Below are positions 1,835-33,227 of a stretch of 64,000 bases of DNA, in pieces. Position numbers and translations under genes: made by a program. This stretch comes from Verrucomicrobiia bacterium (GTDB taxonomy: Bacteria > Verrucomicrobiota > Verrucomicrobiia > Limisphaerales > CAIMTB01). Within the stretch, counting starts at the first letter, position 1. Each line of letters opens with the position of its first letter. The stretch lies in contig JAHCBA010000005.1 in assembly GCA_019634625.1 (NCBI GenBank), positions 136,950 to 200,949 of the forward strand. Reading direction: 5' to 3'. The notes beneath the pieces are model-generated. The model worked only from the letters and a program-made list of their open reading frames with translations, was not told the DNA's origin and made no database searches.

Positions 1835-2497
1835 TCAGGAACCGCTCAACCGGAACCGCAGGGGCAACCGCAGGTACGTCTTCACCGGCTCCCCGTCCTT
1901 CATGCCAGGTTTGAACCGCCATCGCCGCACCGCCTCGAGGGATGGCCGCTCGAATTCGGGATGGGAGGAACTCTCGACCCGCGGATCGTGCACCCGCCCC
2001 TCCTCGTCGAGCAGGAACACCACCGTGACCATCCCCTCCACCCGCGCCCGCCGCAGCTCCGGGGGATACACCGGTGCCACCTGGGAAATCGCCTCGGGCC
2101 GGCGTTCGAGTTCACTGATGTCGAAGACATCCAGCCCGGTTCCCTCGCTCCCCGCCCCAAGCCCTCCGAACCCCATCGCCATCGCCCCGCCCGATCCCAC
2201 CGCCACATCGAGGCTCACGTTGAAGTCCATCGGGGGCGGCGCATCGGCCATCGGCGGCGGCGGCGGTTCCGGCGGGGTCTCCTCGGGAGGCGGCGGCGGC
2301 GGCGGTTCGGGCTCGGTCTCCGGGGCCTGCAGTTGGGCCGCATCCACCCGTCGCAGGGTCAGGTCCTTGTTCAACCGGCTCGACGCCATCTGCGTCAGCG
2401 GCAGCACCAGGAACACCCCCAGTGCCAGCAACCCCGCCAGCACCGTGGACACCCCGAGTCCGATGCGTTCTTCCGGGGGTCGATAAACTCGGCGCAT
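1835..2497 (-). CDS. tonB: Energy transducer TonB
   Basis: N-terminal TM helix (VSTVLAGLLALGVFLVLPL), a Pro/Glu-rich spacer (EPEPPPPPPPEETPPEPPPPP) and a C-terminal TonB fold (YPPELRRARVEGMVTVVFLLDEEGRV...RRWRFKPGMKDGEPV). Confidence 0.9.
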   Translation of the reverse strand: MRRVYRPPEERIGLGVSTVLAGLLALGVFLVLPLTQMASSRLNKDLTLRRVDAAQLQAPETEPEPPPPPPPEETPPEPPPPPMADAPPPMDFNVSLDVAVGSGGAMAMGFGGLGAGSEGTGLDVFDISELERRPEAISQVAPVYPPELRRARVEGMVTVVFLLDEEGRVHDPRVESSSHPEFERPSLEAVRRWRFKPGMKDGEPVKTYLRLPLRFRLSGS

Positions 2498-2544
2498 GGT
2501 CGGTACGATCGCGGTTCGGCAGAGAGGCGTTTCCTCAAACCGGC

Positions 2545-2955
2545 TCAGCCTCCCCCCGGCCGGGCGGCCAGGCTCACGTTCTTTGCGCCGCCAAGAATGG
2601 CCTCATCGATCACCCGCGTAAGCAGCCCGGCGGTCGCCTGCTGATCCGCCTGGATGATCACCGGGAGCTTTTCCTTGTCGGTCAGCCGCTTCACCAGCGG
2701 TCGCACCCCGCTCAACCCGATCTCCCGCCCCCCGTACACCACCTGCCCCTGCGGCGTGACCGCCAGCAGGATGCTGTTCTTGTCGAGTTGCGACGCCGAC
2801 GCCGCCTGCGGCTTGTCCACGTCCACCCCGGTCTCCTCCACAAAGGTGGTCGTCACGATGAAGAAGATCAGCAGGATGAACACCATGTCGATCAGCGGCG
2901 ACACGTTGATGTCGCTCACTTCCTCGGTGTCGGTCACGGAACGTCGGTATCTCAT
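2545..2955 (-). CDS. exbD: Biopolymer transport protein ExbD/TolR
   Basis: Lies in ORF 2545..3426. The true start is [34 protein letters not shown] (ATG at 2955), forming an ATGA overlap with the exbB stop. The upstream Gly-rich extension of the ORF is not coding-like. Confidence 0.9.
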
Positions 2956-3587
2956 GCGCCTGGTGCCATGGAGGGTCTCCCGCCGCCCAACGTCCCGGCC
3001 CGGTTGAACCGCTGGGTCGTCACACTTTCCAACCGGGCCAGAAAGGCCTCGAACTCCGCCCGCCGACGCCGGATCACCTGGATCAGGATCAGCCCGGGCA
3101 AGGCGATGCACAGCCCGACCTCGGGCGGAAACAACGCCTGCGAAATCCCCGCCGCCATCGCCTCGGTGACCTGCCCCCCCCCGCCGCCCGCCGCCAGGGC
3201 CTGGAACGTCACCAGCATCCCCAAGACCGTCCCCAGCAATCCCACCAGCGGCGCCGCCGCCACCAGCGTTCCCAGCCACGCCAGTTGCCGGTCCACCGGT
3301 CCCAGTTCCGCCACCGCCACCTCGGAGAAACGCCGGTGGATGTCCTCCACCGAGGTCACTTCGTCCTGTGTGTACCGGATCACCTCGCCCGCCCATCCCT
3401 CCCCCCGACGCGGTTCCACCACCCATTCCATCCAGGTCCGTTCCTCCACCATCCGCCCCCCGCGCCCCCGCACCGACAGCCAGAGCCGCACCCCGACGAA
3501 GAACATCGTCAGGCAGATCGCCAGCAACGGGAGCATCACCCAGCCGCCCGCCCGCCAGATCTCCAGAATCCGTTCAAGCGTGGCCAT
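2952..3587 (-). CDS. exbB: MotA/TolQ/ExbB proton-channel protein (short form)
   Basis: 211 aa with three TM segments and the conserved block [21 protein letters not shown]...[17 protein letters not shown]. Confidence 0.9.
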
Positions 3588-4989
3588 GCGTCGCCGCCCC
3601 CTTCAACCCGGGCTGCTCCAGGCCGTTGATAAACGCCACCGTCGTCTGTTCCATGCTCCCCAGCACGGCCTTGACCTTCCGGGACAACACCGAGTGCAGC
3701 AGCAACGACGGAATCGCCACGATCAACCCGAACTCGGTGGTGATCAGCGCCTCCGAGATCCCCCCCGCCAGGGTCTTCGGATCGCCCGTCCCGAACACGG
3801 TGATCATGTTGAACGTGTTGATCATCCCCGTGACCGTCCCCAGCAGCCCCAGCAACGGCGCCGCCGCCGCCGACAGCGCGATGAACGGCAGCCACTTCTC
3901 CATCCGTGGCTTGGTCTGCAGCATCTCCTCGTACATCACCTCCTCGATGTACTCCTTCGGCTCGTCCACATGCCCGATCGCCCGCTCGATCATCCTCCCC
4001 ACCGGACCCGCCACGCCGCGCGCCTTCGCCATCGCCTGGTCCCGGTTGCCCGCCTTCAGGGACGCCAGGATCCCCTGCAGGTCCAGGGGCGTCGCAATCC
4101 GGACCCGCGCGAGCTGAAACCATTTCCCCCCGAACATCCCCACCGCGAACAACCCCAGCGCCAGGATCGGCACCATCACCGGCCCGCCCTTCTTCACATG
4201 CTCCACCAGCCCGTCCTTGGTCCGCGCCAGCTTGAGCGCATTGCCTCCCGTGACATCCACCGGCAACGGCCCCGCACCCGATGCCGAAAACGCCCGGATC
4301 CATCCGGTCTCCTGCGGCCCCAGCGGCACCACCGTCGGCCCCGCCGAACCCAACTGCAGTTCCGCCAGTCCCGCCGCGTCGCTCTCCCCGCTCGTGAAAT
4401 ACGCCACCGGTCCCAGCAGCCGGAAGGTCCCCGTCTCCAGACGCCCCGCCGCGGTCAACGCCTTGCCCTCGAATCGCGCCCCCCCCGAAACCTCGCCCAG
4501 CCGGTCCAACGCCAGATCAATCACCCCCAGCATCCCCTCCAGCCGCTCGGACGGCTCCCGACCCAGCCCGGAACCCGACTCTTTCGCCGCTCCGATCCCC
4601 TCCGCCCATCGGTCCACCTCGGCAATGTGAATCCGCGTCTCGAACACCCTCAGATACTCGCCCAGCAGCGCCTCGACGAACCGCACTTCCTCGCCCCGCG
4701 CCCGTGCCAGGGCACGCTCCGCGTTGAGCACCACCAGGGCGTTCTCGTTCGCACGCTCCGCCCGGTCGAGTTCCCGTCGCCGGTCGAGCACCTGCCGCTC
4801 CAACCCGTTCACCGACTCCGCCAGCGGCAGCCGCTCCGCCTCGATGCGCTGACGCAGTTCGGACAACTCCGCCAGAGCGGCCTCGAGCCGGCTCGCGGAT
4901 CCCGCCTGCAACCCGGTCAGGGTCTCGTTCGCCAACGCCGAACCGCCCGCCAGCATCCCCGCCAGAACCCAAAGAAGACTCGTTTTCAT
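3574..4989 (-). CDS. MotA/TolQ/ExbB family protein with a long periplasmic coiled-coil N-terminal domain (TtpC-like)
   Basis: Lies in ORF 3574..5178. The start was moved to MKTSLLWVLAGMLAGGSALA (signal peptide, ATG at 4989). The C-terminal channel block is AAAPLLGLLGTVTGMINTFNMI...GGISEALITTEFGLIVAIPSLL. Confidence 0.85.
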   Translation of the reverse strand: MKTSLLWVLAGMLAGGSALANETLTGLQAGSASRLEAALAELSELRQRIEAERLPLAESVNGLERQVLDRRRELDRAERANENALVVLNAERALARARGEEVRFVEALLGEYLRVFETRIHIAEVDRWAEGIGAAKESGSGLGREPSERLEGMLGVIDLALDRLGEVSGGARFEGKALTAAGRLETGTFRLLGPVAYFTSGESDAAGLAELQLGSAGPTVVPLGPQETGWIRAFSASGAGPLPVDVTGGNALKLARTKDGLVEHVKKGGPVMVPILALGLFAVGMFGGKWFQLARVRIATPLDLQGILASLKAGNRDQAMAKARGVAGPVGRMIERAIGHVDEPKEYIEEVMYEEMLQTKPRMEKWLPFIALSAAAAPLLGLLGTVTGMINTFNMITVFGTGDPKTLAGGISEALITTEFGLIVAIPSLLLHSVLSRKVKAVLGSMEQTTVAFINGLEQPGLKGAATHGHA

Positions 4990-5009
4990 CGCTGTCCCTC
5001 CCCCCGGGT

Positions 5010-5771
5010 TCACGGCAGTTGAACCGGCAATCCCACAAACGTCGGCGGTGCCTCGTCCCGATACATGGCGATCGCCCGCCGCACCGCCGGCCCCACCTCG
5101 GGTCGCACCTCCCATACCCAGCCGTCCGGACCCGGCCGGCCCACGCCGCTGTACCGCCCCGACCGATCCGTGAACCACGCCTGGCCCAGTCCCAGATACA
5201 CGGTTTCCACCTGCACTTCCGCGCCCTCCGGACGTCGCTGCACCTCGCTCACCACCGTCACCGCGGCGTTGAACTTGTCGATCTCGTGCAGGATCCCCAC
5301 CACGTTCTGCAGCCGTTCCATCACCCCGGCCCGGCCGCTGGCCGCCGCCTCCGCCGGGATCCGTCGCACCAGCGGATCAATCTGGCTGCGCAACGGCGCC
5401 GGCAACCGCGGTGCCCATTCCCGGAGTCGTGCCTCGTATCTCCCCACCCGGTCCCGCGCCACCCCCAGCGCCTTCTCCCCCAATTCCAACTCCGCCCGTG
5501 CCTCTGCCAAATCCCGGTCGATCTGCGTCGTGTTGGTGGTGAATCCGCCCAACCGTTCCTCGATCGATCTCAGCTCGCGCTCGTACAATCCTGCCGTCTG
5601 GCGCAATAACTCGCTGTCCCGCTCCCATTCCGTCCGCGTCCGCGACAGCAGTTCCTGGGTCCGAACCCATTCCGTCACCCATTGACGCGCCCCGGCCAGC
5701 GTCCCCTCGGCCGCTGCAAACGCCCCGGCCGGAAACGCCAGCACTCCCATCAGAATGACCATGATCCGCAT
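5010..5771 (-). CDS. DUF3450-like periplasmic coiled-coil protein (TtpB-like first gene of a TonB2-type cluster)
   Basis: Lies in ORF 5010..5900. The start was moved to [19 protein letters not shown] (ATG at 5771). It has a coiled-coil N-terminus and its position directly upstream of the long ExbB matches TonB2-type clusters. Confidence 0.7.
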
Positions 5772-6021
5772 CGCGTGGCACAGTGCCCGCCGCCCGATTG
5801 CGGTATCGCGACCGATCGGTGACAACTCCGTGACAAACCCTCCCCTCCCGAAGCGCCCCGCCCCGCACGCGCCACTCTCCATGCGCACCGAAAAGCACAC
5901 TCCGTTTTCATCGCCGCCAGCGCCATTTCGGGCCAGCTACACTTGCAATCTTCCCGCCTCTCGTCGCAGCGTTCCTCCGGGAGTCGTGGCCCGGAAGTCC
6001 CCAGCCGGCTCCCCCACGCCT

Positions 6022-6894
6022 ATGAAAGCGCCGAGGACCCGTCCCTCCCTTCCCGGATTCACCCTGATCGAACTGCTGGTGGTCATCGCCATCATTGCGA
6101 TCCTCGCCTCCATGCTCCTGCCCGCCCTGGCCAAGGCAAAAAGCAAGGCCCAGGGCATCTCCTGCCTCAACAACACCAAGCAGATGATGCTCGGCTGGCG
6201 CATGTATGTGGAGGACAACGACGAACGCCTACCCGGCGCCTACGCCGCCAAGGGAGGCCCCAACGAGCGCTACGCCTGGGTGGTCGGCATCATGGACTAC
6301 AACGGCGGCAACCGCTCCAACTGGGATGTCAACGAAGACCTCGCCAAAAGCCCCCTCGCCCCCTACATCGGCAACAGCTACGGCATCTTCCGATGCCCCG
6401 CTGACAAATCCTCCGTCCAGGTCACCGCCGGCGATCGCCGCGGCCAGCGCCTCCCCCGTGTCCGCAGCATCTCCATGAATTCATGGGTCGGCGGCAATTA
6501 CGAGGATGTCCGCGCCAATCAGCTCTCCTGGTGGCATGTCACCGCCCCGCGCATGGCTCTCTATCTCAAATCCACCGACATGAAGGATCCCGGCCCGTCC
6601 CAAACCTGGGTCCTCATCGACGAGCGCGAAGACAGCATCAACGACGGCTTCTGGGTGATCTCCATGGACGGCTACCCCAACACCGCCCAGACCAAGATCG
6701 TCGATTACCCCGCCAGCTACCATAACGGCGCCGCCGGCCTCTCCTTTGCCGATGGCCACTCCGAAATCCGCCGCTGGGTCGATCCCCGGACCCGGCCGGC
6801 GCTCCGCCCCAATGGCACCATCCCGCTCAATGTGGCTTCGCCCAACAACCGGGATGTCGTCTGGCTCCAGGAACGTACCACCCGCCCGCAGTAG
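6022..6894 (+). CDS. Prepilin-type N-terminal cleavage/methylation domain protein (DUF1559-like, PVC-typical)
   Basis: Lies in ORF 5755..6894. The start is [40 protein letters not shown], a classic type IV pilin-like leader with a hydrophobic helix. The C-terminus contains FADGHSE (H-X9-DG-like). Confidence 0.85.
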
Positions 6895-7007
6895 CCCCGG
6901 CCACCCCGCGCAACGGATCGGCGCGCCGCCCGGCTCCCCGACTGCCTGGCGGCCCCGCCCGTCTGTGGGCCGGTTGAAAAACGATCCCGCACCCGTACCG
7001 TGCCGTC

Positions 7008-8717
7008 ATGGCTGAGCCGAAGAAGAAGAACCCCGCCGTTCCCCCGCCCGGCGAACCCAACCCGGAGGAGGCTCCCTTCGCGCCGCCGCCGGCCATGATG
7101 GACCTCCTCTCCCGCGAGGAACTTGACCGCCTCTCCACCCTCCAGATCCTCGACCTCATCGCCGGCAAACTGCCCCCCCGCCATTCCGCCCTCCTCGACC
7201 TGGCCTACCTCCGCGACCGCGTCGTCGGCCTCGAGGAAACCAACGACCAGGCCCGCCAGGTCATCGAGAAGTACGACGAGGCCCTCGACAAACTCCGCTC
7301 CCCCGCCCTCCGAGTCGGCACCTTCCTCGCCGCCCTCGAACCCGACCGCGCCCATGTCTGCCTCGGCGGCGCCGACTACATCTGCCGCGTCGATCCCCAA
7401 CTCGCGCTTTCCAGTCTCCAGATCGGACAGCGCGTCCTCTGCAACGAAGCCTTCGCCGTCGTCCAGGGCCTCGGCTTCGACCGCGGCGGCCCCCTCGTCC
7501 GCATCGATGAAGCCCTCTCCGACGGCCGCCTCCGCATCGGCACCGAGGCCGGTACCGCCCCCGTCGTCGTCCTTCGCTCCGCCCTGCTCGCCAAGGAAAA
7601 ACTCAAGCCCGGGCTGGAAGTCCGTCTCGATGCCAATCAACGCGTCGCCCTCGAAGTCCTCGGCGTCGGCAAACGCATCGACCGCTCCCTCGACCGCGTC
7701 ACACCCATCCCCTGGTCCGCCATCGGCGGCCAGGACGAAGCGGTCCAGGCCATCCGCGACACCATCGAACTCCCCTTCCTCCACCGCGACCTCTTCCGCC
7801 GCTTCCAGCACGCCGTCCCCAAGGGCTTCCTCCTCCATGGCCCCCCCGGCTGCGGCAAAACCCTCCTCGGCAAGGCCACCGCCTGGAACCTCCGCCAGCA
7901 GATCCTCGACGCCACCGGGGTCGAACACCCCGAGTTCTTCCTCCACATCAAGGGACCCGAGGTCCTCAATATGTGGGTCGGCGAATCCGAACGGCAGGTC
8001 CGCGACCTCTTCGCCCAATGCCGCGAACGCGCCTCCGAAGGCCACCTCGCCTTCCTCTTCATCGACGAGGCCGAAAGCATCCTCGGCGTCCGGCGCGGCG
8101 GTCGCGTCCACAGCATCCTCTCCACCCTCGTCCCCATGTTCTGCACGGAGATGGACGGCCTCGAACCGCTCTCCAATGTGGTCATCATCCTCGCCTCCAA
8201 CCGCGCCGACCTCATCGACCCCGCCATCCTCCGCCCCGGCCGCATTGACCGGAAAATCCGCGTCCGCCGCCCCGACAAGGACGGCGCCCGGCGGATCTAC
8301 GGCATCTACCTCACCGATTCGCTGCCCCTGGCCGAGCCCTCCGACACCCTGGCCGCCGCCATCGCCGACGCCCATTACGCCCGCCATCCCGACAACGAAT
8401 TCCTCGAAGTCACCTTCCGCAGCGGCCGCCGTGATGTCCTCACCCGCGGCGACGTCGCCAGCGGCGCCATCATCGCCGCCGTCGTCGAACGCGCCAAAAG
8501 CCTCGCCATCAAACGTGCCATCGCCTCCAGCACCGCCGGCGAACTCACCCGCGACGACCTCCTCGCCGCCCTCCGCCTCGAACACGCGGAAAACGACCTC
8601 TTCCCTTCCAGCGACCTGACCGAGGACTGGCTCAAACTCACGGACTTCGACCCCGAAAACGTCGTCCGCCTCGGCCCCATCCGGCCCCGTCGCGAGGAAC
8701 GGAGCGCCGTCGTGTGA
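7008..8717 (+). CDS. mpa: Proteasome-associated AAA+ ATPase (Mpa/ARC type)
   Basis: N-terminal coiled coil (LRDRVVGLEETNDQARQVIEKYDEALDKL), tandem OB-like region, Walker A GPPGCGKT, Walker B LFIDEAE, and a pore-loop-like MWVGESE. It is the first gene of the proteasome operon. Its stop overlaps the next start (GTGA). Confidence 0.9.
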   Translation: MAEPKKKNPAVPPPGEPNPEEAPFAPPPAMMDLLSREELDRLSTLQILDLIAGKLPPRHSALLDLAYLRDRVVGLEETNDQARQVIEKYDEALDKLRSPALRVGTFLAALEPDRAHVCLGGADYICRVDPQLALSSLQIGQRVLCNEAFAVVQGLGFDRGGPLVRIDEALSDGRLRIGTEAGTAPVVVLRSALLAKEKLKPGLEVRLDANQRVALEVLGVGKRIDRSLDRVTPIPWSAIGGQDEAVQAIRDTIELPFLHRDLFRRFQHAVPKGFLLHGPPGCGKTLLGKATAWNLRQQILDATGVEHPEFFLHIKGPEVLNMWVGESERQVRDLFAQCRERASEGHLAFLFIDEAESILGVRRGGRVHSILSTLVPMFCTEMDGLEPLSNVVIILASNRADLIDPAILRPGRIDRKIRVRRPDKDGARRIYGIYLTDSLPLAEPSDTLAAAIADAHYARHPDNEFLEVTFRSGRRDVLTRGDVASGAIIAAVVERAKSLAIKRAIASSTAGELTRDDLLAALRLEHAENDLFPSSDLTEDWLKLTDFDPENVVRLGPIRPRREERSAVV

Positions 8718-10240
8718 TCCAGCCCGCCCCGATCCTTTTCGGACTCGAAACCGAGTTCGGCATCGCCCGCGGCGACCACCCCGACCTCGACGTGGTCGCC
8801 GAGTCCATTGCCCTCGTCCGCAGTGCCGCCGAACCCGGCGTCCTGATGCGCTGGGATTACGCCTCCGAAAATCCCCACCGGGACATGCGCGGCTTCGACG
8901 TCGCCCAGCTCCGCCAGGACGACGACGAGGCCCGTTACTTTGCCCAGGACGCCCGGCGCGAACTCAGCTTCGCCGAGATCAAGAGCGATTTCGTCTTCGC
9001 CAACGGCGCCCGCTTCTACAACGACCACGCCCACCCGGAATACTGCACCCCGGAATGCGCCCGCCTCTCCGACCTCGTCCTCCACGACCGCGCCGGGGAA
9101 CGCATCGTCATGGCCTGCGCCGCCGCCCTCTCCCGCCAGCGCGGCGAAACCGTCCGCCTCTACAAGAACAACACCGACTTCGCCGGCCACAGCTACGGTT
9201 GCCACGAAAACTACCTCATCCCCCGCGCCCTCGACTGGAACATTCTCGCGACCGCCATCCAGGCCTTCCTGGTCACCCGCCAGATCTTCGCCGGAGCCGG
9301 CAAGTTTGCCTTCGAGGAGGAGGACCGCCTGGTCGGGCACGGATTCCAGATCTCCCAGCGCAGCGACTTCTTCAGCGAACTGCAAAGCGTGGACACCATG
9401 CAGCGGCGCCCCATCGTCAATACCCGCGACGAACCCCACGCCGACCCACGCTACTGGCGCCGCTTCCACGTCATCCTCGGCGACGCCAACATGTCCCCCT
9501 TCGCCACCTGGCTGAAGGTCGGCACCACCGCCCTCACCCTCGAGGCGATCGTCCGCGAACCCGCCCACCCCTGGCCAGCCCTCGCCGATCCCCTCGCCGC
9601 CCTCCGCACCATCTCCGCCGACCCGCACTGGCGCTGGGAAATCCGCTGCACCGACCGCTCCCCCGCCACCGCCATCTCCGTCCAGCGCGACTACCTCGAT
9701 GCCGTCCGCCAAACCTGTGACCTGTCCGACCCCGACCGTGCCGCCCTGGTGACCGCCTGGGCCGGGGTCCTCGATGACCTCGAATCCGACCCCGCCCGAT
9801 GCCGGGACCGCCTCGACTGGGTTGCCAAACATGCCCTCATCCGCGAATTCCAGGCGGCCCAGCAGATCCGTGACGACGATCCCTGGCTGCTCAGCCTTGA
9901 CCTCGAGTACCACCGCCTCGACACCGCCGAGGGCCTCTACTTCGCCCTCGAGGACTCCGGCGCCATGCGACGTGTCCCCCCGCCCGCCGATGTCGAACGG
10001 GCCATCCATTCCCCCCCCGACAACACCCGCGCCGCCGTGCGCGGCCTGTGCATCGCCCGCTTCGCCCCCTTCGTCCTCTCCGCCCAGTGGGACCATGTCA
10101 CCCTCCAGACCCGGCGTGGCCCCCTGCGCATCGACCTGACCGATCTCTTCACCCCGGAACGTCTCGAATCCCTCCTTGCCGCCCTGCACGCCGCCGCGAC
10201 ACCGGACGACTTGCGCTTTGCCCCTTCCGACGGAAACTAA
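8714..10240 (+). CDS. dop: Pup-ligase/deamidase family protein, paralog 1 (Dop-like)
   Basis: GLETEFG N-terminal motif, NGARFYNDHAHPEYCTPE, YGCHENYL and NTRDEPHAD. The N-terminal segment RWDYASENPHRDMRGFD resembles the M. tuberculosis Dop segment RWDYEVESPLRDARGFD (from memory). Its position between mpa and the modifier gene is as in actinobacteria. The family call is strong. The Dop versus PafA split is tentative. Confidence 0.8.
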   Translation: MIQPAPILFGLETEFGIARGDHPDLDVVAESIALVRSAAEPGVLMRWDYASENPHRDMRGFDVAQLRQDDDEARYFAQDARRELSFAEIKSDFVFANGARFYNDHAHPEYCTPECARLSDLVLHDRAGERIVMACAAALSRQRGETVRLYKNNTDFAGHSYGCHENYLIPRALDWNILATAIQAFLVTRQIFAGAGKFAFEEEDRLVGHGFQISQRSDFFSELQSVDTMQRRPIVNTRDEPHADPRYWRRFHVILGDANMSPFATWLKVGTTALTLEAIVREPAHPWPALADPLAALRTISADPHWRWEIRCTDRSPATAISVQRDYLDAVRQTCDLSDPDRAALVTAWAGVLDDLESDPARCRDRLDWVAKHALIREFQAAQQIRDDDPWLLSLDLEYHRLDTAEGLYFALEDSGAMRRVPPPADVERAIHSPPDNTRAAVRGLCIARFAPFVLSAQWDHVTLQTRRGPLRIDLTDLFTPERLESLLAALHAAATPDDLRFAPSDGN

Positions 10241-10260
10241 CCGCCAATCTCTCCCCGCTT

Positions 10261-10434
10261 ATGCCCGAGCAGACTCAAAAGACTCGCCCTCCCATCCCGC
10301 GCCCGTCCGGCGGAGGCGGTGAAGGACCGAAAGCCCCCGACATCGAGAAGCCCAATACCGAGGAACTCCTCAAACGCATGCGCCGCGTCGATCCCGATCA
10401 GGCGCGCCGCTACCGCCAGCGCACCGGCGAGTAA
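10261..10434 (+). CDS. ubact: Pup/UBact-like small protein modifier (57 aa, C-terminal Glu)
   Basis: ATG at 10261 inside track ORF 10048..10434. Sequence: MPEQTQKTRPPIPRPSGGGGEGPKAPDIEKPNTEELLKRMRRVDPDQARRYRQRTGE. It is small and disordered-looking, has a basic helical C-terminal half and ends in ...RTGE immediately before the stop. It sits between the Dop-like gene and prcB, exactly where pup sits in actinobacteria. Confidence 0.8.
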   Translation: MPEQTQKTRPPIPRPSGGGGEGPKAPDIEKPNTEELLKRMRRVDPDQARRYRQRTGE

Positions 10435-10458
10435 CCTCGCCCACCCCTGCTAAACTCT

Positions 10459-11238
10459 GTGGGAGACTCCCTACCCCCTCCGCTGGCGGGCGATTTCTTC
10501 GCCCTCCTGGCCCGTCACCACCTCCAGAACCCCGCGCCGGACGCCTCGGCCTCGCTGCCCCCCACCCAGATCCAGGCCACCACGGTCTTCGCCTTCCATT
10601 TCGCCGGGGGCGTCCTGATGGCCGGCGACCGGCGCGCCACCGCCGGCCACCTCATCGTCACCGAGCAGGTGGACAAAATCCTCGAACTGGACGCCTCATC
10701 CCTCCTCGCCATCGCCGGCGTTCCGGCCACCGCCTTCGAGATCGCGCGTACCCTCAAGACGTCGTTCGAATACTACCGGCGCAGCCAGTTGCAGTCCCTC
10801 AGCCTTCCCGCCCGGCTCCGCGCCCTCTCCCGCGCCCTCCGCGATAACCTCCCCCTCACCCTTCAGGGGGTCGGTGTCGTCGCCCCCCTCTTCGCCGGCC
10901 TCGACACCACCTCTTCACCACCCCGGCCCCAGATCTATTTCTATGATCCCCTCGGAGCGCAGTTCCAGGCCGCCGCCTTCGCCGCCTCCGGCTCGGGTGC
11001 CATCACCATCCGCAGTCTCCTCAGTTTTCAGGAACGGTTCGGGTCCCCCACGCCCTCCCGCCTCCCGCGCCGTGAAGCCGTCCAGCTCGCCCTCCGCGTC
11101 CTCACCGTCGCCGCGGAATTCGATACCGCCACCGGCGGCATCCAGCCCGATGCCTCCCGCTTCGCCACCCTCCGCATCCTCGGTCCGGACGGCATCTCGA
11201 CGGTGGACGATGCGGAACAACGTGACGCCCTCGGTTGA
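10459..11238 (+). CDS. prcB: 20S proteasome beta subunit
   Basis: GTG start and a 40-aa propeptide. The mature N-terminus is then TTVFAFHFAGGVLMAGDRRATAGHLIVTEQVDK. This places Thr1, Asp17 and Lys33 exactly as in M. tuberculosis PrcB ([21 protein letters not shown]...K33). Confidence 0.9.
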   Translation: MGDSLPPPLAGDFFALLARHHLQNPAPDASASLPPTQIQATTVFAFHFAGGVLMAGDRRATAGHLIVTEQVDKILELDASSLLAIAGVPATAFEIARTLKTSFEYYRRSQLQSLSLPARLRALSRALRDNLPLTLQGVGVVAPLFAGLDTTSSPPRPQIYFYDPLGAQFQAAAFAASGSGAITIRSLLSFQERFGSPTPSRLPRREAVQLALRVLTVAAEFDTATGGIQPDASRFATLRILGPDGISTVDDAEQRDALG

Positions 11239-11259
11239 CGTCCCACCCGATCCCGGACC

Positions 11260-11997
11260 ATGACTGAAGAACCCTACAGGTGGATCGAGGCGATCGGGAA
11301 CCGCCGCGAATACGTGGAAACCCAGCTCCGGGGCGGTTCGCCCGTCTTCGCCGCCAGCCTCGACGACGGGATCCTGCTCCTCGGCGTCGGCACCGGACAT
11401 TCCAAGGTCTTCGAAATCTTCGACCGCCACGCCCTCGCCGGTCTCGGGCATCCCACCGACCTCGAACGGGTCCGCCAGACGTTGATCGATGCCGCCCACC
11501 TGGAAGCCTTCACCCGCGCCTCGGCGGATGTCTCCCTCCGGCGCCTGGTCAGCTTCGGCCTCGGACCCCAGCTCAAAACCGCCTTCGAACAGCTCTTCAG
11601 CCCGCCCTTCCTCGTCCGACTCCTCCTCGCCGAAGTGGGCCAGCGCCCAACCAACGATCTCCTCGTCCGGCTCGATTTCGACGGTTCCTTCGAACTCCGG
11701 CCCGGCGGCGTGGCGATCGCAGCCGACAGCCCCTCCGGAACCGCCGCAGCCGGGGACTGGCTTGCCCCGCGCATCGATTCGTCCACATCCCTGCCCGATG
11801 CGTCCCTCTGGCTCCTCGAGGCCTGGCATCGCCTGACCGCCTCCGAACCGTTCCCGGCCGACCTCGACCGTCCCCGAACCGCGTGGACCCTCCCCGCCGG
11901 CCGTCAGGTCGAAGCCGCCCTGCTCCGCCGCACCGCGCCCGGCGAAGCCCGCTACCAGCCCCTGGACCCGGCCCAACTCGTGCCCCCCCCCGCATGA
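11260..11997 (+). CDS. prcA: 20S proteasome alpha subunit
   Basis: 245 aa Ntn-fold-like protein without an N-terminal Thr nucleophile, immediately after prcB. It has an ATGA overlap with the following gene. Confidence 0.8.
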   Translation: MTEEPYRWIEAIGNRREYVETQLRGGSPVFAASLDDGILLLGVGTGHSKVFEIFDRHALAGLGHPTDLERVRQTLIDAAHLEAFTRASADVSLRRLVSFGLGPQLKTAFEQLFSPPFLVRLLLAEVGQRPTNDLLVRLDFDGSFELRPGGVAIAADSPSGTAAAGDWLAPRIDSSTSLPDASLWLLEAWHRLTASEPFPADLDRPRTAWTLPAGRQVEAALLRRTAPGEARYQPLDPAQLVPPPA

Positions 11998-13394
11998 CCC
12001 GCGTCGTCGGTCTCGAAACCGAATACGGCTGCCTCTCCGACGACCCCGCCGGCCCGGCGGCAACCGTCGGACTCGTCCGCGGCTGGCTGTTCGAACGTCA
12101 GCGTTACGGACTGCCCGATGTCTTCCAGCGCGACTGGGATGAACCGCCCGGCAACGGCGGATTCCTGTTCAACGGCGGACGCGCCTACGTGGACATGGGG
12201 CACCTCGAATACTGCACCCCCGAGTGTCTCCAGCTCCGGGACCTCATCCTCTACGACCGCGCCGGCGATCTCCTCCTCGACGAAGCCCTCTCCTCCCTCG
12301 GCCTCACCGCACGGGCCGGCTTCATCCGCAACAACATCGACCACTACTCGGGGGCCACCTTCGGCTGCCACGAAAACTATCTCGTCCGCCGCAGCGCCCC
12401 CCTCACCGAGCGCAACGTCCTCTCCGTCCTCGCCTTCCTCACCCTTCGCGTCCTCTATTCGGGCGCCGGCCGGGTCGGCTCCTCCCTCGGCGCCGAGAAC
12501 CGCGGCGATCACCGCCGGCCCGGCGCCAATCCTCATTTCCAGATCAGTCAGCGCGCCGACTACATCAACAACGAGCTGTTCGAGTGGGTCCAGTTCAACC
12601 GCGCCATCATCAATACCCGCGACGAACCCCTCGCCGATCCCCGCCGCTTCCGCCGCCTCCACCTCCTCCACGGCGACACCAGCGTCCTCCCCTGCACCCT
12701 CGCCCTCAAAATCGGCACCACGGCGCTCGTCCTCGATCTCCTCGAAATCGACCACCTGCCCCATCTCTCCCTCGCCGACTCGGTCCAGACTTTCCGCATC
12801 CTGTCCCACCAGACCGACGGCCCCTGGGAGGTCACGCTGGCCGAAGGCGGGTCCGCCGATGCCATCGAGATCCTCGCCCGTTATCAGGCCGCCGCGTCGG
12901 CCGAATTCCGCGGTCGCGATGCCGAAACCGATGCCATCCTTGCCCTCTGGGCCGAAACCCTGGATGCCCTCTCCAAGGACCCCCAACGCCTGATCGGCCG
13001 GGTGGACTGGATCACCAAGCAATGGCTCCTCTCCCAGTTCGTGGAACGGGAGGGCGTGTCCTGGGACGATCCCTGGCTCCGCTCCCAGGACCTCGAATTC
13101 CACCACGCCTCCGTCACCCGTTCCCTCGGCCACGCCCTCGACCGTTCGCCCGATCCCTGGGCCATCCGTCAGGGGGACGCCACCAAGGCCCTCGACACCC
13201 CCCCGGCCGACACCCGCGCCCATGCCCGTTCCCAGCTCATGCGTCGCATCTCCCAGCGAGAGGGTCGCTACTTCGTGGACTGGGAGATCGTGGACATCGA
13301 GGGCTTCGAAACGCTGCACCTCCTCGATCCCTTCTCCCCCCAGCCGCCCGAGCCCAAGCCTCTCTCGGAACCGCCCGATTCAAAGCCCTCCTGA
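11994..13394 (+). CDS. pafA: Pup-ligase/deamidase family protein, paralog 2 (PafA-like by position and length)
   Basis: In the frame of track ORF 11280..13394, starting MTRVVGLETEYGCL (ATG at 11994). Motifs: GGRAYVDMGHLEYCTPE, FGCHENYL, NTRDEPLAD and LHLLHGDTS. The family call is strong. Ligase versus deamidase is not resolved. Confidence 0.8.
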   Translation: MTRVVGLETEYGCLSDDPAGPAATVGLVRGWLFERQRYGLPDVFQRDWDEPPGNGGFLFNGGRAYVDMGHLEYCTPECLQLRDLILYDRAGDLLLDEALSSLGLTARAGFIRNNIDHYSGATFGCHENYLVRRSAPLTERNVLSVLAFLTLRVLYSGAGRVGSSLGAENRGDHRRPGANPHFQISQRADYINNELFEWVQFNRAIINTRDEPLADPRRFRRLHLLHGDTSVLPCTLALKIGTTALVLDLLEIDHLPHLSLADSVQTFRILSHQTDGPWEVTLAEGGSADAIEILARYQAAASAEFRGRDAETDAILALWAETLDALSKDPQRLIGRVDWITKQWLLSQFVEREGVSWDDPWLRSQDLEFHHASVTRSLGHALDRSPDPWAIRQGDATKALDTPPADTRAHARSQLMRRISQREGRYFVDWEIVDIEGFETLHLLDPFSPQPPEPKPLSEPPDSKPS

Positions 13395-13500
13395 ACCGCG
13401 TAGGCCCATCCAGTCAACCGGGCATGAACGACGGCACCCGATCGTCAGGTTCAGTGAACCCGACCGATCGGGCGTCACGCCGACCTTCCCCTCCTTCCCC

Positions 13501-15012
13501 TTACAGGCGGTCGAAGACCAGGATGCGACCGTCCACCGAGGTCATCATCTGGCGATCCCGGATGGTCGCCTGCAGATCCAACGAGTTGCCCCCTTGGGAA
13601 ATGCGAATTCGATAGTCGTCCCCGGCCCGGGACCACTCGCCATCCCCCGTGGTCATCATCGGCGCCAGGATGGAGGACGAACTGGGCCGCGAAGGAGGAC
13701 GTCCTGGAGCCATCCGCGGAGTCGTGGTCGCCAACGGCACGCCGCGCTGCTGCACCCCACCGCCGCCACCGCCACCGCCACCGCCCAGACCGTAGCGATC
13801 CCGATAGAGATCCGCGGTGCTCTCCGTCGGCTGAGCCTGCGGCAAGGCCCGCGCCGCCAAAGATCGTGCCGTCATTCCGGAACCCGACCCAGGAGCCGAC
13901 GGGGCATACTCTCCATCCACCGGAGTCGCTGACGTGGGAGCACTCGCCGATCCCGCCCGGCCAACCACTTCCAGGAGTTTGTGCTCGTCCTTGGCCTTGA
14001 CCTTCAGGAGCGCCCGATGATCCGTGGTGAAGCCCAGCACCATCTCGTCCAAGTAAACGTTCAACGCCCGTCGAAGCAGGTTGAACTCCACCGCGGGCAG
14101 CCGCTCCGACCCGACATTGCGCATCTCCGCAATGCTGCGGCGCACGTTCAAGCGCCAGCGTCCCAGAATGCGCTCGTCCTTGAACCGGTCCGAAACCCCC
14201 GTCCGCAGGTAGGCCTCCAGATCCCGCAAATCCAACTCCAGCAACTCGTTCACGATCTCATGGTTGTCCGCCACCGCCCGAATCCGGGGATGCTCCAGGA
14301 TCTCCATCAGCCCCGCCCGCGACTGGAGCAGTGTCTGGATCTCGGGATCCCGGCCCAGGTCCGCCACTTCCTGCCGCTCCGCCATGCCCAGGAAGGGCGG
14401 ATAGCTGGCCAGCCGGCTGTGCACCGATGGATTGTGGTAAACCATCCCCAGAATGTCCGACGCGAGATAGTGCGCCTCGTCCGCAGGTTGAAACCGCTCG
14501 ACGATCCGGCTCAGGCCCGACTGCTCCATCCCCCGGGCAAATTGGTTCGCAAACCGAAGGGACATCGTCCCCTCATCCTCGTTGGCCAGCTGCGTGGACA
14601 GGTAGCCGGGCACATAGGCCACCATCCCCAGCAGGACCAGCCAGACGGTGCCCACGCCCGCCCCCACCGCCGTCCCCATGCGCCGGTTCAAACGCAGCCA
14701 CCGGGCATAGGAGTATTCGTCCGTGCTGTTCCGATACCGCTTCTGAACCCAGTAATCCACCCCCAGCGCCACCCCCAGAAACACCAGCGACAAAAGCAGA
14801 AACCCCACCAGCGGCGGCAGGTAGAACTGCCAGACCGGATTGGTGAAGCCGATCAACGGAATCAACCCGGCACACCACGCCCCCACGGTCTTCGCCAGCG
14901 CCGCGCTGACCACCAGCCCCGCCAGGCATATCGCGGATCGAATCGCACCCAGGAAGTAGCCAATGACACCTGCCAGGGCCAGGAGCAGTACGCCGACAAT
15001 CCAGATGAGCAT
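13501..15012 (-). CDS. Membrane protein with a CvpA-like N-terminal domain and a long soluble C-terminal region
   Basis: 503 aa with four N-terminal TM helices (MLIWIVGVLLLALAGVIGYFLGAIRSAICLAGLVVSAALA...), a soluble middle region and a low-complexity tail that includes a run of 10 Gly. Confidence 0.7.
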   Translation of the reverse strand: MLIWIVGVLLLALAGVIGYFLGAIRSAICLAGLVVSAALAKTVGAWCAGLIPLIGFTNPVWQFYLPPLVGFLLLSLVFLGVALGVDYWVQKRYRNSTDEYSYARWLRLNRRMGTAVGAGVGTVWLVLLGMVAYVPGYLSTQLANEDEGTMSLRFANQFARGMEQSGLSRIVERFQPADEAHYLASDILGMVYHNPSVHSRLASYPPFLGMAERQEVADLGRDPEIQTLLQSRAGLMEILEHPRIRAVADNHEIVNELLELDLRDLEAYLRTGVSDRFKDERILGRWRLNVRRSIAEMRNVGSERLPAVEFNLLRRALNVYLDEMVLGFTTDHRALLKVKAKDEHKLLEVVGRAGSASAPTSATPVDGEYAPSAPGSGSGMTARSLAARALPQAQPTESTADLYRDRYGLGGGGGGGGGGVQQRGVPLATTTPRMAPGRPPSRPSSSSILAPMMTTGDGEWSRAGDDYRIRISQGGNSLDLQATIRDRQMMTSVDGRILVFDRL

Positions 15013-19619: not shown

Positions 19620-20489
19620 TCAATCCTCCTCCCGCTCGTCCCCAGACTCTTCCCCCGGCGCGGGCCGGCCCTGCGCCGCATGCCGGCGCTCCGTCACCAG
19701 GCCGCGCCGGCTCCCCTTGGCAAAGGTCACCAACCGCAACCCCCATTCGCTCTCCGCCAGCGGTTCCGCCGCCGCCAACGCCGCCCGGAATCCCAGCCCG
19801 GTGCGGAACAGCGCGTGGTAGATCCGGCGCAGTTCCAATCGGACCGCCGCCGGCAATCCCGCCCGTCGCAGCCCGATCACATTCAAGCCGCATACCCGGT
19901 TGTGGTCCCGCGCGATGCAGAACGGCGCCAGGTCCTTGCTGATGCCGGAGTCCCCCTGCATCAGCGCCAGCGTCCCCACCCGCACAAACTGGTGGATCAG
20001 GCAGTTTGCCGAGATGAACGCCATGTCCTCGATCACCACATGCCCGCCCAGTTGCGCCCCGTTCGCGATGATCACCCGGTCCCCGATCTGGGCGTTGTGC
20101 CCGACGTGGCAGTGCGCCATGAAGAAGCCGCCGGACCCGATCCGCGTCGGCTCGTCCGCCCGGTTGGCGCAATGCACCGTGACATGTTCCCGAAAGGTAT
20201 TGCCCTCCCCGATCTCCAGCCGCGTCGGCTCACCTCCATAGCGCAGATCCTGCGGCGGACCGCCAATGACGCACCCCGCTCCGAAGGAGTTCCCGGCCCC
20301 GATCCGGGTCCATCCCGTCAGATGCACCAGCGGACCCACCCGGCATCCCGGCCCCAGCTCGACATGGCCGTCGATGACCGTGTGCGGGCCCACCTCAGCC
20401 GTCGGATCGATGCGGGCCCGGGAATCAATCACGGCGGTCGGATGATGCGCCACGCCGGAAGTCTGCCCAACCCGCCGCCGACAATCCAC
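19620..20489 (-). CDS. lpxA: Acyl-ACP--UDP-N-acetylglucosamine O-acyltransferase
   Basis: Left-handed beta-helix hexapeptide repeats plus LpxA blocks (HPTAVIDSRARIDPTAEVGP..., QDLRYGGEPTRLEIGEGNTFREHVTVH, MAHCHVGHNAQIGD, GLNVIGLRRAG). The true start may be the GTG at 20453 (VAHHPTAV). Confidence 0.9.
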   Translation of the reverse strand: MDCRRRVGQTSGVAHHPTAVIDSRARIDPTAEVGPHTVIDGHVELGPGCRVGPLVHLTGWTRIGAGNSFGAGCVIGGPPQDLRYGGEPTRLEIGEGNTFREHVTVHCANRADEPTRIGSGGFFMAHCHVGHNAQIGDRVIIANGAQLGGHVVIEDMAFISANCLIHQFVRVGTLALMQGDSGISKDLAPFCIARDHNRVCGLNVIGLRRAGLPAAVRLELRRIYHALFRTGLGFRAALAAAEPLAESEWGLRLVTFAKGSRRGLVTERRHAAQGRPAPGEESGDEREED

Positions 20490-20652
20490 GCTTTCGAGCC
20501 CTCGGAGCCTCTCTGAAAATTCGAAGGGGCCCGGTTTCGAAGAAATGGCCGGATGCCGAGGCGCGGAGGAGGAGGATCGAGCATACCCGACAGCGGGCTG
20601 TGACCCAGGAGCGACGATACAAGCCGGCCAAATCCCATCCCTTACAACAATA

Positions 20653-20758
20653 GGTCAGGCTCACTAATGTTGACCCTACGGCAACGAGACTACGGCAATA
20701 AGTCAGACCCCTATTTGTTGACGCCACTGGCTATATAGTCAGGCTCACAGTTGTTGAC
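20653..20758 (+). repeat. Array of three 21-bp dyad motifs (GTCAGGC-N7-TGTTGAC) in an AT-rich island
   Basis: Units at 20653-20675 (GGTCAGGCTCACTAATGTTGACC), 20702-20722 (GTCAGACCCCTATTTGTTGAC) and 20738-20758 (GTCAGGCTCACAGTTGTTGAC). Each is preceded by an A/T-rich patch (aata, aataa, atata). The array lies upstream of lpxA, which is on the minus strand. Confidence 0.7.
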
Positions 20759-32813: not shown

Positions 32814-32831
32814 CGACTACCCGCGTAGTCG
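32814..32831. promoter_or_regulatory. Candidate BlaI-type operator dyad
   Basis: CGACTAC-CCGC-GTAGTCG is a perfect 7-bp inverted repeat. It lies 22 bp upstream of the blaI-like start codon. Confidence 0.35.
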
Positions 32832-32852
32832 GGTGGGAACACCACAGTCGTC

Positions 32853-33224
32853 ATGAAGAAGGTTCCGCGCATTTCAGAAACCGAGTGGCAGATCATGAAG
32901 ATCGTCTGGTCCCGTGGCCCGTGCACGGCCAACGAGATCCTCGAGGCGTTGAATTCCCGTGAGCCCTGGCATCCCAAGACGGCGCGGACGTTGATTGGCC
33001 GGCTGGTGAAGAAGCGGGCACTCACCTACAAGGAGGACGGCCGGGCCTACATTTACCGGGCGGGAATCAGCGAGGAGGATGCGGTGGCCCACTACAGCCG
33101 GTCGTTCCTGGAACGGGTGTTCGACGGGGCCCTGGCGCCCATGGTCGCCCACTTCGTTCAGCATGAGCGGCTCTCCCCCACCGATCTGAAGGAGCTGCGG
33201 GATGTGTTGACCGGCAGGGACTAG
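32853..33224 (+). CDS. blaI: BlaI/MecI/CopY-family transcriptional repressor
   Basis: 123 aa winged-helix protein: ISETEWQIMKIVWSRGPCTANEILEAL...WHPKTARTLIGRLVKKRAL. Confidence 0.85.
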   Translation: MKKVPRISETEWQIMKIVWSRGPCTANEILEALNSREPWHPKTARTLIGRLVKKRALTYKEDGRAYIYRAGISEEDAVAHYSRSFLERVFDGALAPMVAHFVQHERLSPTDLKELRDVLTGRD

Positions 33225-33227
33225 GCC

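Follow-up and report, generated by a model that had tools for sequence, protein, structure and literature searches.

A probable UBact-proteasome operon in a Verrucomicrobiota bacterium, a Gram-negative counterpart of the actinobacterial Pup-proteasome system

Introduction

Does a diderm bacterium carry, within a single compact locus, a complete set of genes for ubiquitin-like protein tagging and proteasomal degradation, and what would each of these genes do? This question is raised by positions 7008-13394 of the window, the whole 64,000-nucleotide stretch of DNA that was analyzed, where six closely spaced genes lie on the plus strand in the order mpa-dop-ubact-prcB-prcA-pafA. An earlier note, made from the sequence alone, had read the locus as a complete operon for UBact-type tagging and a 20S proteasome in a diderm, PVC-like genome, and we found that the profile matches, the neighboring genes, and the related loci support this reading. 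We consider it highly probable (about 85%) that a Verrucomicrobiota bacterium carries here, on its chromosome, a UBact-proteasome operon that is the Gram-negative equivalent of the Pup-proteasome system of Actinobacteria.

Lehmann, Udasin, Livneh, and Ciechanover reportedly described UBact loci in Gram-negative phyla, including Verrucomicrobia and Nitrospirae, in 2017 (BBRC 483:946). The system is already known: reports of Pup-type systems in verrucomicrobia date from 2008 (PMC2588565), and the name UBact dates from 2017 (Lehmann et al., as cited in PMC12751074), in agreement with the claim of the earlier note that UBact sets, including those of Verrucomicrobia, were reported in that year. The curated models PF20513 and NF033388 now name the modifier automatically. 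The locus is an intact, ordinary copy of the UBact-proteasome operon. The analysis shows which genes it holds, the families to which they belong, that their catalytic motifs are intact, and that order and sequence are conserved in many species.

Locus layout

The six genes are as follows:

7008..8717, plus strand, Mpa/ARC-like proteasomal AAA+ ATPase (569 aa; Pfam AAA and OB domains)
8714..10240, plus strand, Dop-like member of the Pup-ligase/deamidase family, gene 2 (508 aa; PF03136)
10261..10434, plus strand, UBact modifier (57 aa; PF20513 and NF033388)
10459..11238, plus strand, 20S proteasome beta subunit, PrcB-like (259 aa; PF00227)
11260..11997, plus strand, divergent 20S proteasome alpha subunit, PrcA-like (245 aa; orthologue-profile match)
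11994..13394, plus strand, second Pup-ligase-family paralogue without a Dop-loop, gene 6 (466 aa; PF03136)

The co-directional packing described earlier was found just as claimed, with 4-nt overlaps between the ATPase gene and gene 2 (GTGA, 8714-8717) and between the alpha-subunit gene and gene 6 (ATGA, 11994-11997), and remaining intergenic gaps of 20, 24, and 21 nt. An independent gene call (Logan assembly, run SRR12908348) gave lengths of 508, 57, 259, 245, and 466 aa, the same as in the window. The overlaps and short gaps fit a single transcript, and we infer co-transcription from this spacing; no informative promoter or terminator signals were found at the locus.

The modifier and the origin of the locus

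The third gene product passed the cutoffs of both UBact models (PF20513, 83.5 bits against 27.8; NF033388, 84.6 bits against 35), which, together with the translation, confirms the previously described 57-aa modifier ending in RYRQRTGE. UBact was the sole family matched: a search of all Pfam-A at E<=10 gave no match to the Pup family, and BLASTP returned no alignment with M. tuberculosis Pup. The N-terminal half is rich in Gly and Pro, and the conserved C-terminal half reads KPNTEELLKRMRRVDPDQARRYRQRTGE. UBact orthologues were identified by tblastn in 62 related loci (54-84% identical to the window UBact), all encoded, as in the window, between the Dop homologue (here at 8714-10240) and prcB (10459-11238), and their C-terminal halves are strongly conserved. 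In the orthologue comparison, differences from the window UBact numbered 906 at third, 331 at first, and 171 at second codon positions. The terminal residue in close relatives is Q or E, with Q in most; because the window UBact ends in Glu, no deamidation is required before ligation. Covalent attachment of UBact to substrate lysines is predicted by homology. No experimental evidence of UBact conjugation in any organism was found in the literature searched, the coverage of which was limited, and within that coverage the searches agree with the statement in the earlier note that the system lacks biochemical characterization.

Could the locus instead be an ordinary Pup system, acquired recently by horizontal transfer of an actinobacterial Pup-proteasome cluster or present through mis-binning of an actinobacterial contig? 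The gene order is the actinobacterial arrangement, and one analysis places the origin of pupylation in Actinobacteria with horizontal spread (PMC7947786), but the modifier fits UBact and not Pup. High G+C content (67-69%) would likewise suit such an origin, yet it is uniform along the window. Moreover, gene 2 and gene 6 are 34-41% identical to the actinobacterial Dop/PafA references, from which their clades are separate in a neighbor-joining tree, and none of the five enzyme and proteasome components reaches the cutoff of its actinobacterial NCBIfam equivalog model. The locus is flanked by genes characteristic of diderm PVC bacteria; within the window these include a pair of ExbB genes, ORFs resembling ExbD and TonB-C, a DUF1559/prepilin gene, and LpxA, the same genes (TonB/ExbBD, lpxA, prepilin/DUF1559) from which an outer-membrane-bearing host had been inferred earlier. 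Of the best 80 related loci, nearly all carry the label of a Verrucomicrobiota, Limisphaerales, or Pedosphaera MAG, and the NCBI entry 100% identical to gene 6 is a 'proteasome accessory factor PafA2 family protein' from a 'Verrucomicrobiae bacterium'. These relatives answer the question, raised in the earlier note, of whether the contig is actinobacterial: it is not. Modifier type, identities, G+C, flanks, and relatives effectively refute an actinobacterial origin, whether by recent transfer or mis-binning, and we regard its probability as close to nil. The host is a diderm Verrucomicrobiota MAG, and any transfer of the locus would have been ancient.

A collection with one genome per species holds at least 583 stretches that encode a Dop-like relative, and the order mpa-dop-ubact-prcB-prcA-pafA is retained wherever a related locus extends far enough. 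Fourteen of the 76 informative related loci (~18%) have mpa-dop alone, without UBact, prcBA, or pafA nearby, and the modules are thus separable.

The ATPase and the proteasome

The N-terminus of the ATPase is a coiled coil, and the protein also has a pair of OB domains, an AAA module, and a C-terminal domain, with Pfam matches to AAA, Prot_ATP_ID_OB_N, and Prot_ATP_ID_OB_C. Its best solved relative is M. tuberculosis Mpa (309 bits, residues 68-555 aligned), and its score against TIGR03689 (pup_AAA) is 407.9 bits, below the equivalog cutoff of 504.75. Translation, Pfam, and the Mpa alignment bear out its earlier description as an Mpa/ARC-type ATPase with Walker A GPPGCGKT, Walker B LFIDEAE, a coiled coil, and an OB region.

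The beta subunit matched PF00227 (75.4 bits) and scored 131.3 bits against TIGR03690, below the cutoff of 191.9. Cleavage of its propeptide of ~40 aa is predicted after ...QIQA, giving a mature start TTVFAF (Thr1), with Asp17 and Lys33 in place in mature numbering. Across 58 relatives, conservation extends to the Q[AG]|TTVF junction, GDRRAT (Asp17), and Lys33, so that both translation and conservation uphold the Thr1/Asp17/Lys33 assignment made earlier. The alpha subunit gave no Pfam match, including PF00227, even at E<=10, and scored 48.5 bits against TIGR03691 (cutoff 139). Nevertheless, a profile built from 35 orthologues matches the Rhodococcus (1q5q; E 4e-12) and M. tuberculosis (3hf9; E 7e-10) alpha subunits, and the matches to alpha subunits of these two organisms span E 4e-12 to 8e-10. 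Homology to proteasome alpha subunits is therefore supported at the level of sequence profiles, although the curated thresholds are unreached, and the alpha subunit that the earlier note had placed after the beta subunit is borne out by the orthologue profile while PF00227 stays silent on it.

The tail of the ATPase (...RSAVV) contains no GQYL or HbYX motif and no Tyr, and a [VI][VI]-type tail without Tyr is found in 54 of 54 complete relatives. In M. tuberculosis, Mpa needs its GQYL tail for gate opening (PMC8142254). Since GQYL is missing from the window ATPase and the alpha subunit is very divergent, docking of the ATPase on the 20S particle is not established by homology; the conserved [VI][VI] tail suggests that docking works through an element of a different kind.

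Pupylation in Corynebacterium, which lacks a proteasome, is a reversible regulatory modification. UBact might similarly be a reversible regulatory modifier that is not mainly degradative, with the ATPase and 20S particle working largely independently of the tag. The missing docking motifs, the divergent alpha subunit, and the separability of modules in the mpa-dop-only loci would fit this, as would the fact that robust degradation with wild-type M. tuberculosis Mpa and 20S has not been reconstituted either (PMC8142254). However, UBact lies between dop and prcB, its linkage to a proteasome with intact Thr1/Asp17/Lys33 is conserved across many species, and the ATPase retains the coiled-coil, double-OB, AAA architecture of Mpa together with a tail conserved in a way that suggests other docking. 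We therefore consider a mainly regulatory role improbable and favor a degradative UBact-proteasome pathway.

The two ligase-family enzymes

The earlier note had made its reading depend on profile searches placing 8714-10240 and 11994-13394 in the Pup-ligase/deamidase family; both were assigned to it (PF03136; 493 bits for gene 2 and 367 bits for gene 6, cutoff 25). This also confirms a Dop/PafA homolog at 8714-10240, with GLETEFG, YGCHENYL, and NTRDEPHAD in its translation, and a second at 11994-13394 after the alpha subunit. GLETE, the catalytic Asp in an NG.R.Y.D motif, CHENY, and NTRDEP occur in both proteins alike.

For gene 2, Dop was the best model (TIGR03688 Dop, 431.5 bits; TIGR03686 PafA, 335.2 bits), with a score below the TIGR03688 equivalog cutoff of 492.3, and among solved structures Dop (E 9e-100) was again closer than PafA (E 2e-63). 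The alignment with Dop spans the full length and includes a Dop-loop (RWDYasENPhRDmRGF) aligned to that of A. cellulolyticus Dop. The catalytic motif YNDHAHPEYCTPE is Dop-type, with the D-H-A-H-P-E-Y active-site neighborhood present, and lies 88 residues from GxExE, compared to 82-83 in Dop references. Gene 2 is predicted to remove UBact from substrates and, in relatives where UBact is Gln-ended, to deamidate it.

Gene 6 is assigned clearly to neither PafA nor Dop. Its equivalog scores are close (Dop 275.6, PafA 262.8; PafA cutoff of 551.3 unreached), as are its matches to solved structures (Dop 209 bits, PafA 191 bits), and its AF2 model (pLDDT 87.8, pTM 0.90) is equally similar to both (TM 0.76-0.79). 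We compared it with the PafA-specific residues of Hecht 2020, Table 1 (post-Asp insertion, Gly-Ser, Ala-Thr-Ala, and helical alpha-loop residues; PMC7947786) and did not find them: the catalytic-Asp region VDMGHLEYCTPE is without the one-residue insertion of PafA and has CTP where PafA has ATA, and the alpha-loop YINNELFEWVQFNR is invariant, matches neither enzyme, and has V-Q where PafA and Dop conserve T-T. In the AF2 model, this loop forms a helix at 195-206 as in PafA, at pLDDT <50. The PafA-like features are the absent Dop-loop, deletion of which shifts activity towards ligase over hydrolase (PMC7947786), and a C-terminal VDW...DPFS motif. The phylogeny of the ligase paralogues that the earlier note had proposed was run as a neighbor-joining tree: both clades are distinct from the actinobacterial references, with bootstrap 98/100 for the gene 2 clade, whereas the node joining gene 6 to the PafA side has a support of only 21/100. 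We tentatively presume that gene 6 is the UBact-protein ligase, in a PafA-like role.

It is also conceivable that the two enzymes do not divide the labor as Dop and PafA do, and that gene 2 performs both ligation and removal of UBact or that gene 6 is a specialized hydrolase or regulator. Gene 6 is marginally closer to Dop in scores, has Dop-length spacing after the catalytic Asp and the Dop-like CTP, and lacks the alpha-loop Thr-Thr whose mutation reduces PafA activity, and engineered Dop variants can perform mixed Dop-PafA reactions (PMC7947786). This is countered by the missing Dop-loop of gene 6, its PafA-like C-terminal motifs and side of the tree, and the invariance of its ATP-binding, Mg-binding, and catalytic residues across the clade. 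Furthermore, a Glu-ended modifier still requires an ATP-dependent ligase, and gene 2 shows every Dop hallmark. We hence regard such an arrangement as unlikely, and retain gene 2 as the Dop-like enzyme and gene 6 as the presumed ligase.

Gene 6 combines a Dop-type catalytic-Asp neighborhood with an invariant alpha-loop without Thr-Thr, a combination that would belong to the possible mechanistically distinct system considered below.

Proposed mechanism and implications

We propose that gene 6, by homology, would use ATP to phosphorylate the gamma-carboxylate of the C-terminal Glu of UBact, and would then move UBact onto the epsilon-amino group of a substrate lysine to form an isopeptide bond. 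The N-terminal coiled coils of the hexameric Mpa-like ATPase may bind the conserved, helix-forming C-terminal half of UBact, after which the ATPase would pull the disordered Gly/Pro-rich N-terminus through its OB rings and AAA pore (WVG pore loop) and unfold the substrate, passing it into a 20S particle of the form alpha7-beta7-beta7-alpha7, in which the beta subunits would autoprocess to expose Thr1. The Dop-like gene 2 would undo tagging and, in Gln-ended relatives, first convert Gln to Glu, an activation step that would be unnecessary for the window UBact, which is already Glu-ended. A bolder proposal, which we find doubtful though worth stating, is that the verrucomicrobial UBact system is mechanistically distinct from the Pup-proteasome system, with a separately diverged ligase in gene 6 and an ATPase that docks on a divergent alpha-ring via its [VI][VI] tail.

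As a discovery, the locus brings nothing that the reports of 2008 and 2017 and the curated models had not already provided. It shows a complete ubiquitin-like tagging and proteasome pathway as a standard, widely conserved trait of Limisphaerales/Pedosphaera-type Verrucomicrobiota, and it offers a well-defined candidate for reconstituting UBact tagging biochemically for the first time; its UBact is Glu-ended and requires no deamidation step. Such a reconstitution could help to show which of the two paralogues is the ligase, how the 20S particle is engaged by an Mpa-type ATPase lacking GQYL, and why some relatives have mpa-dop alone.

Comparison with known systems

The closest known counterparts are the UBact-proteasome loci of Gram-negative phyla, which share the curated UBact match, the RTG[EQ] end, the place between the Dop homologue and prcB, and the presence of Mpa, PrcB, PrcA, and a second ligase-family gene. 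Verrucomicrobia, the phylum of the host, is reportedly among those first listed for UBact, with the same gene order. We found no substantive difference; the window UBact is Glu-ended, and most close relatives are Gln-ended.

The Pup-proteasome system of Actinobacteria (M. tuberculosis Mpa, Dop, Pup, PrcB, PrcA, and PafA) matches the locus in its six functional parts and in their order, with common enzyme families, folds, catalytic residues, and a Glu/Gln C-terminal attachment residue. By contrast, no sequence similarity to Pup could be detected in the window modifier, the ATPase tail is without GQYL, the alpha subunit is too divergent for PF00227, and the residues that PMC7947786 lists as PafA-specific are missing from the PafA-like enzyme. 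Moreover, the window pafA overlaps prcA by 4 nt, whereas the actinobacterial pafA lies kilobases away, and the host is a diderm, unlike actinobacterial Pup-proteasome hosts.

The PafA/Dop homologues of Planctomycetes are likewise PF03136 members from a PVC phylum and are deep-branching relative to actinobacterial Dop/PafA, but they are described as single copies and have been proposed to modify membrane proteins, whereas the window encodes two paralogues with a full proteasome and ATPase (PMC7947786; PMC2588565). Finally, archaeal PAN-20S with SAMP/ubiquitin-fold modifiers likewise pairs a coiled-coil/OB AAA+ unfoldase and a Thr1 20S particle with a small protein tag. The window tag, however, has no beta-grasp fold and is served by a glutamine-synthetase-like ligase and not by E1 chemistry, and its ATPase differs from PAN in having a double OB domain and no HbYX tail.

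Organization of the operon

According to the gene models of the window, all six genes of the operon (mpa-dop-ubact-prcB-prcA-pafA) lie exactly where the earlier note had placed them:

7008-8717, +, gene 1, ATPase, 569 aa
8714-10240, +, gene 2, first Pup-ligase-family gene, 508 aa
10261-10434, +, UBact modifier, 57 aa
10459-11238, +, proteasome beta subunit, 259 aa
11260-11997, +, proteasome alpha subunit, 245 aa
11994-13394, +, gene 6, second Pup-ligase-family gene, 466 aa

The start/stop overlaps are genuine (GTGA at 8714, ATGA at 11994), the other intergenic spacings are 20, 24, and 21 nt, and an independent gene call (Logan assembly, run SRR12908348) reproduced the lengths of the five downstream genes. 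Scans of 6700-13700, which are uninformative for this phylum, found no promoter-like sites, and terminator-like sites as often as expected from shuffled sequence. The proposed membership of 8714-10240 and 11994-13394 in the Pup-ligase/deamidase family held, with PF03136 matches of 493 and 367 bits, respectively. Overall, our findings confirm the original observation and support its interpretation as a UBact-type tagging and proteasome operon.

The locus is a typical example of a system that has been described before, and it is already annotated. Pup conjugation systems beyond actinobacteria, with verrucomicrobia explicitly included, were reported by Iyer, Burroughs and Aravind (2008; PMC2588565), the name UBact was given in Gram-negative phyla by Lehmann et al. 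(2017, as cited in PMC12751074), and Hecht et al. (2020; PMC7947786) noted that homologues of Dop and PafA occur sporadically in Verrucomicrobia. Within the limited collection of literature searched, we found no experimental work on UBact.

Related loci

When a single genome of each GTDB species was scanned, at least 583 stretches were found to encode a relative of gene 2. The best 80 of these (L001-L080; 62-77% identity) are nearly all labelled Verrucomicrobiota, Limisphaerales, or Pedosphaera MAGs, and among them every contig that reaches far enough shows the order mpa-dop-ubact-prcB-prcA-pafA.

As a separate observation, 14 out of 76 informative related Verrucomicrobiota loci carry mpa and dop with no UBact, prcB, prcA, or pafA, as judged over up to 8 kb downstream (L040, L014, L016, L020, L023, L025, L028, L035, L042, L044, L056, L060, L063, and L069). 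One of these is on a complete 6.0-Mb chromosome (L040:7980-11004, OY969763.1), where an aminotransferase-like ORF directly follows dop. In such genomes, the remaining components are either encoded elsewhere or have been lost.

Genomic neighborhood and host

The following features surround the operon:

1835-5376, -, TonB-C-like ORF, ExbD-like ORF, and two ExbB genes
5686-6894, +, DUF1559/prepilin-type gene directly upstream of mpa
13501-15012, -, convergent 503-aa ORF, predicted membrane protein with a Gly-run
19620-20654, -, LpxA
32829-34880, +, BlaI/BlaR1-type repressor-sensor pair

G+C is uniform over the window (62-71% in 2-kb blocks). An identical copy of gene 6 (100%) is present in NCBI on a 213.8-kb contig of a 'Verrucomicrobiae bacterium' MAG, under the name 'proteasome accessory factor PafA2 family protein'. 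The ExbB/ExbD/TonB-C-like, DUF1559/prepilin, and LpxA neighbors, the Verrucomicrobiota labels of the relatives, and this identical protein together bear out the diderm PVC host that had been deduced from the neighboring genes.

One of the two ExbB genes has a long N-terminal extension (600 aa). The DUF1559/prepilin gene keeps its position upstream of mpa in the closest relatives only (e.g. L001, L004, L005, L007, and L018), which is probably synteny with no functional link. The ORF at 13501-15012 has no Pfam match, and tblastn found no counterpart of it in the 80 related loci; it therefore appears lineage-specific, and we did not count it as a member of the system. The Pfam scan took in the window ORFs other than those at 37.7-39.5 kb and the last few (54-64 kb), and an Rfam scan of the whole 64-kb window gave no match that reached a family's gathering score.

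The UBact modifier

The 57-aa ORF matches UBact in Pfam (PF20513, 83.5 bits) and passes the cutoff of the NCBIfam equivalog NF033388 (UBact). Across 62 orthologues, its C-terminal half, KPN.EELLKRMRKVDPDQA.RYRQRTG[EQ], is highly conserved, and differences from the window UBact are concentrated at the third positions of codons (906, with 331 at first and 171 at second positions), a pattern that shows this short reading frame to be a genuine gene under purifying selection. Close relatives differ in the last residue: RTGQ, which needs deamidation, is the ending in most of them, and RTGE is that of the window UBact and about ten others (L001-L005, L007, L011, L045, L046, and L062). In L010, the C-terminus of UBact is divergent or truncated (ending in ...PAAARIT).

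The two Pup-ligase-family paralogues

Gene 2 scores better against the models and structures of Dop than against those of PafA, has a complete Dop-loop and a Dop-type catalytic-Asp motif (YNDHAHPEYCTPE), and forms a clade with 98/100 bootstraps in a neighbor-joining tree of 130 Pup-ligase-family sequences (Kimura distances, 100 bootstraps). By every test applied, gene 2 is Dop-like.

Gene 6 is ambiguous between Dop and PafA. It shows much the same identity to Dop (35%), PafA (34%), and gene 2 (35%), scores marginally higher to Dop than to PafA, lacks the one-residue insertion that PafA has behind the catalytic Asp, and carries CTP at the place of ATA in PafA. Most positions of its alpha-loop, ISQRADYINN.LFEWVQFNRAIINTRDEPLAD (residues ~183-215; window 12540-12640), are invariant among 118 homologues; in this loop, V-Q (V199/Q200) replaces two threonines that are conserved in both PafA and Dop (PMC7947786), and EPLAD stands for EPHAD. 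The AF2 model of gene 6 (pLDDT 87.8, pTM 0.90) renders the alpha-loop as a PafA-like helix, yet with pLDDT below 50, and a Foldseek search of the PDB with this model scores Dop and PafA alike (TM 0.76-0.79) and so cannot tell ligase from hydrolase. The gene-6 clade, with 84/100 bootstraps, is solid like that of gene 2, and the tree puts it on the PafA side, through a deep joining node with only 21/100, which makes orthology to PafA no more than possible. Three points favor a ligase: the absence of the Dop-loop, whose experimental removal shifts activity toward ligase (PMC7947786), the presence of a PafA-like C-terminal VDW...DPFS motif, and the placement in the tree. Our best inference is that gene 6 would act as the ligase.

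The ATPase and the proteasome subunits

Gene 1 contains the AAA domain and both proteasomal-ATPase OB domains (Pfam) and aligns with M. tuberculosis Mpa over residues 68-555 (309 bits). Its C-terminus reads ...RSAVV (window 8640-8717), and tails of this [VI][VI]-type, with small hydrophobic residues at the end and no Tyr, occur in 54/54 complete relatives; they therefore contain no GQYL or HbYX gate-opening motif. The beta subunit is matched by the Proteasome family (Pfam) and has a propeptide of roughly 40 aa followed by a conserved Q[AG]|TTVF junction, cleavage at which would give Thr1, Asp17, and Lys33. The alpha subunit (11260-11997) has no Pfam match, PF00227 included, even at E<=10. Solved bacterial alpha subunits were recovered only by an orthologue profile (A1, 35 orthologues), which finds those of Rhodococcus and M. 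tuberculosis at E 4e-12 to 8e-10.

Comparison with the actinobacterial Pup-proteasome system

For gene 1, gene 2, the beta and alpha subunits, and gene 6, the expected actinobacterial equivalog models are the best in NCBIfam, all below their cutoffs, which is consistent with a lineage separate from that of the actinobacteria. In contrast to the actinobacterial system, the modifier has no detectable similarity to Pup (Pfam at E<=10; BLASTP to M. tuberculosis Pup, no alignment), the alpha subunit is unusually divergent, and pafA (gene 6) overlaps prcA by 4 nt. Gate opening by M. tuberculosis Mpa depends on its GQYL tail (PMC8142254), whereas the window ATPase, like all 54 complete relatives, has a Tyr-free tail that ends in small hydrophobic residues. 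We consider it rather unlikely that the UBact branch is mechanistically distinct from the Pup-proteasome, a distinction that would comprise an atypical ligase active-site loop and another mode of docking between the ATPase and the 20S proteasome.
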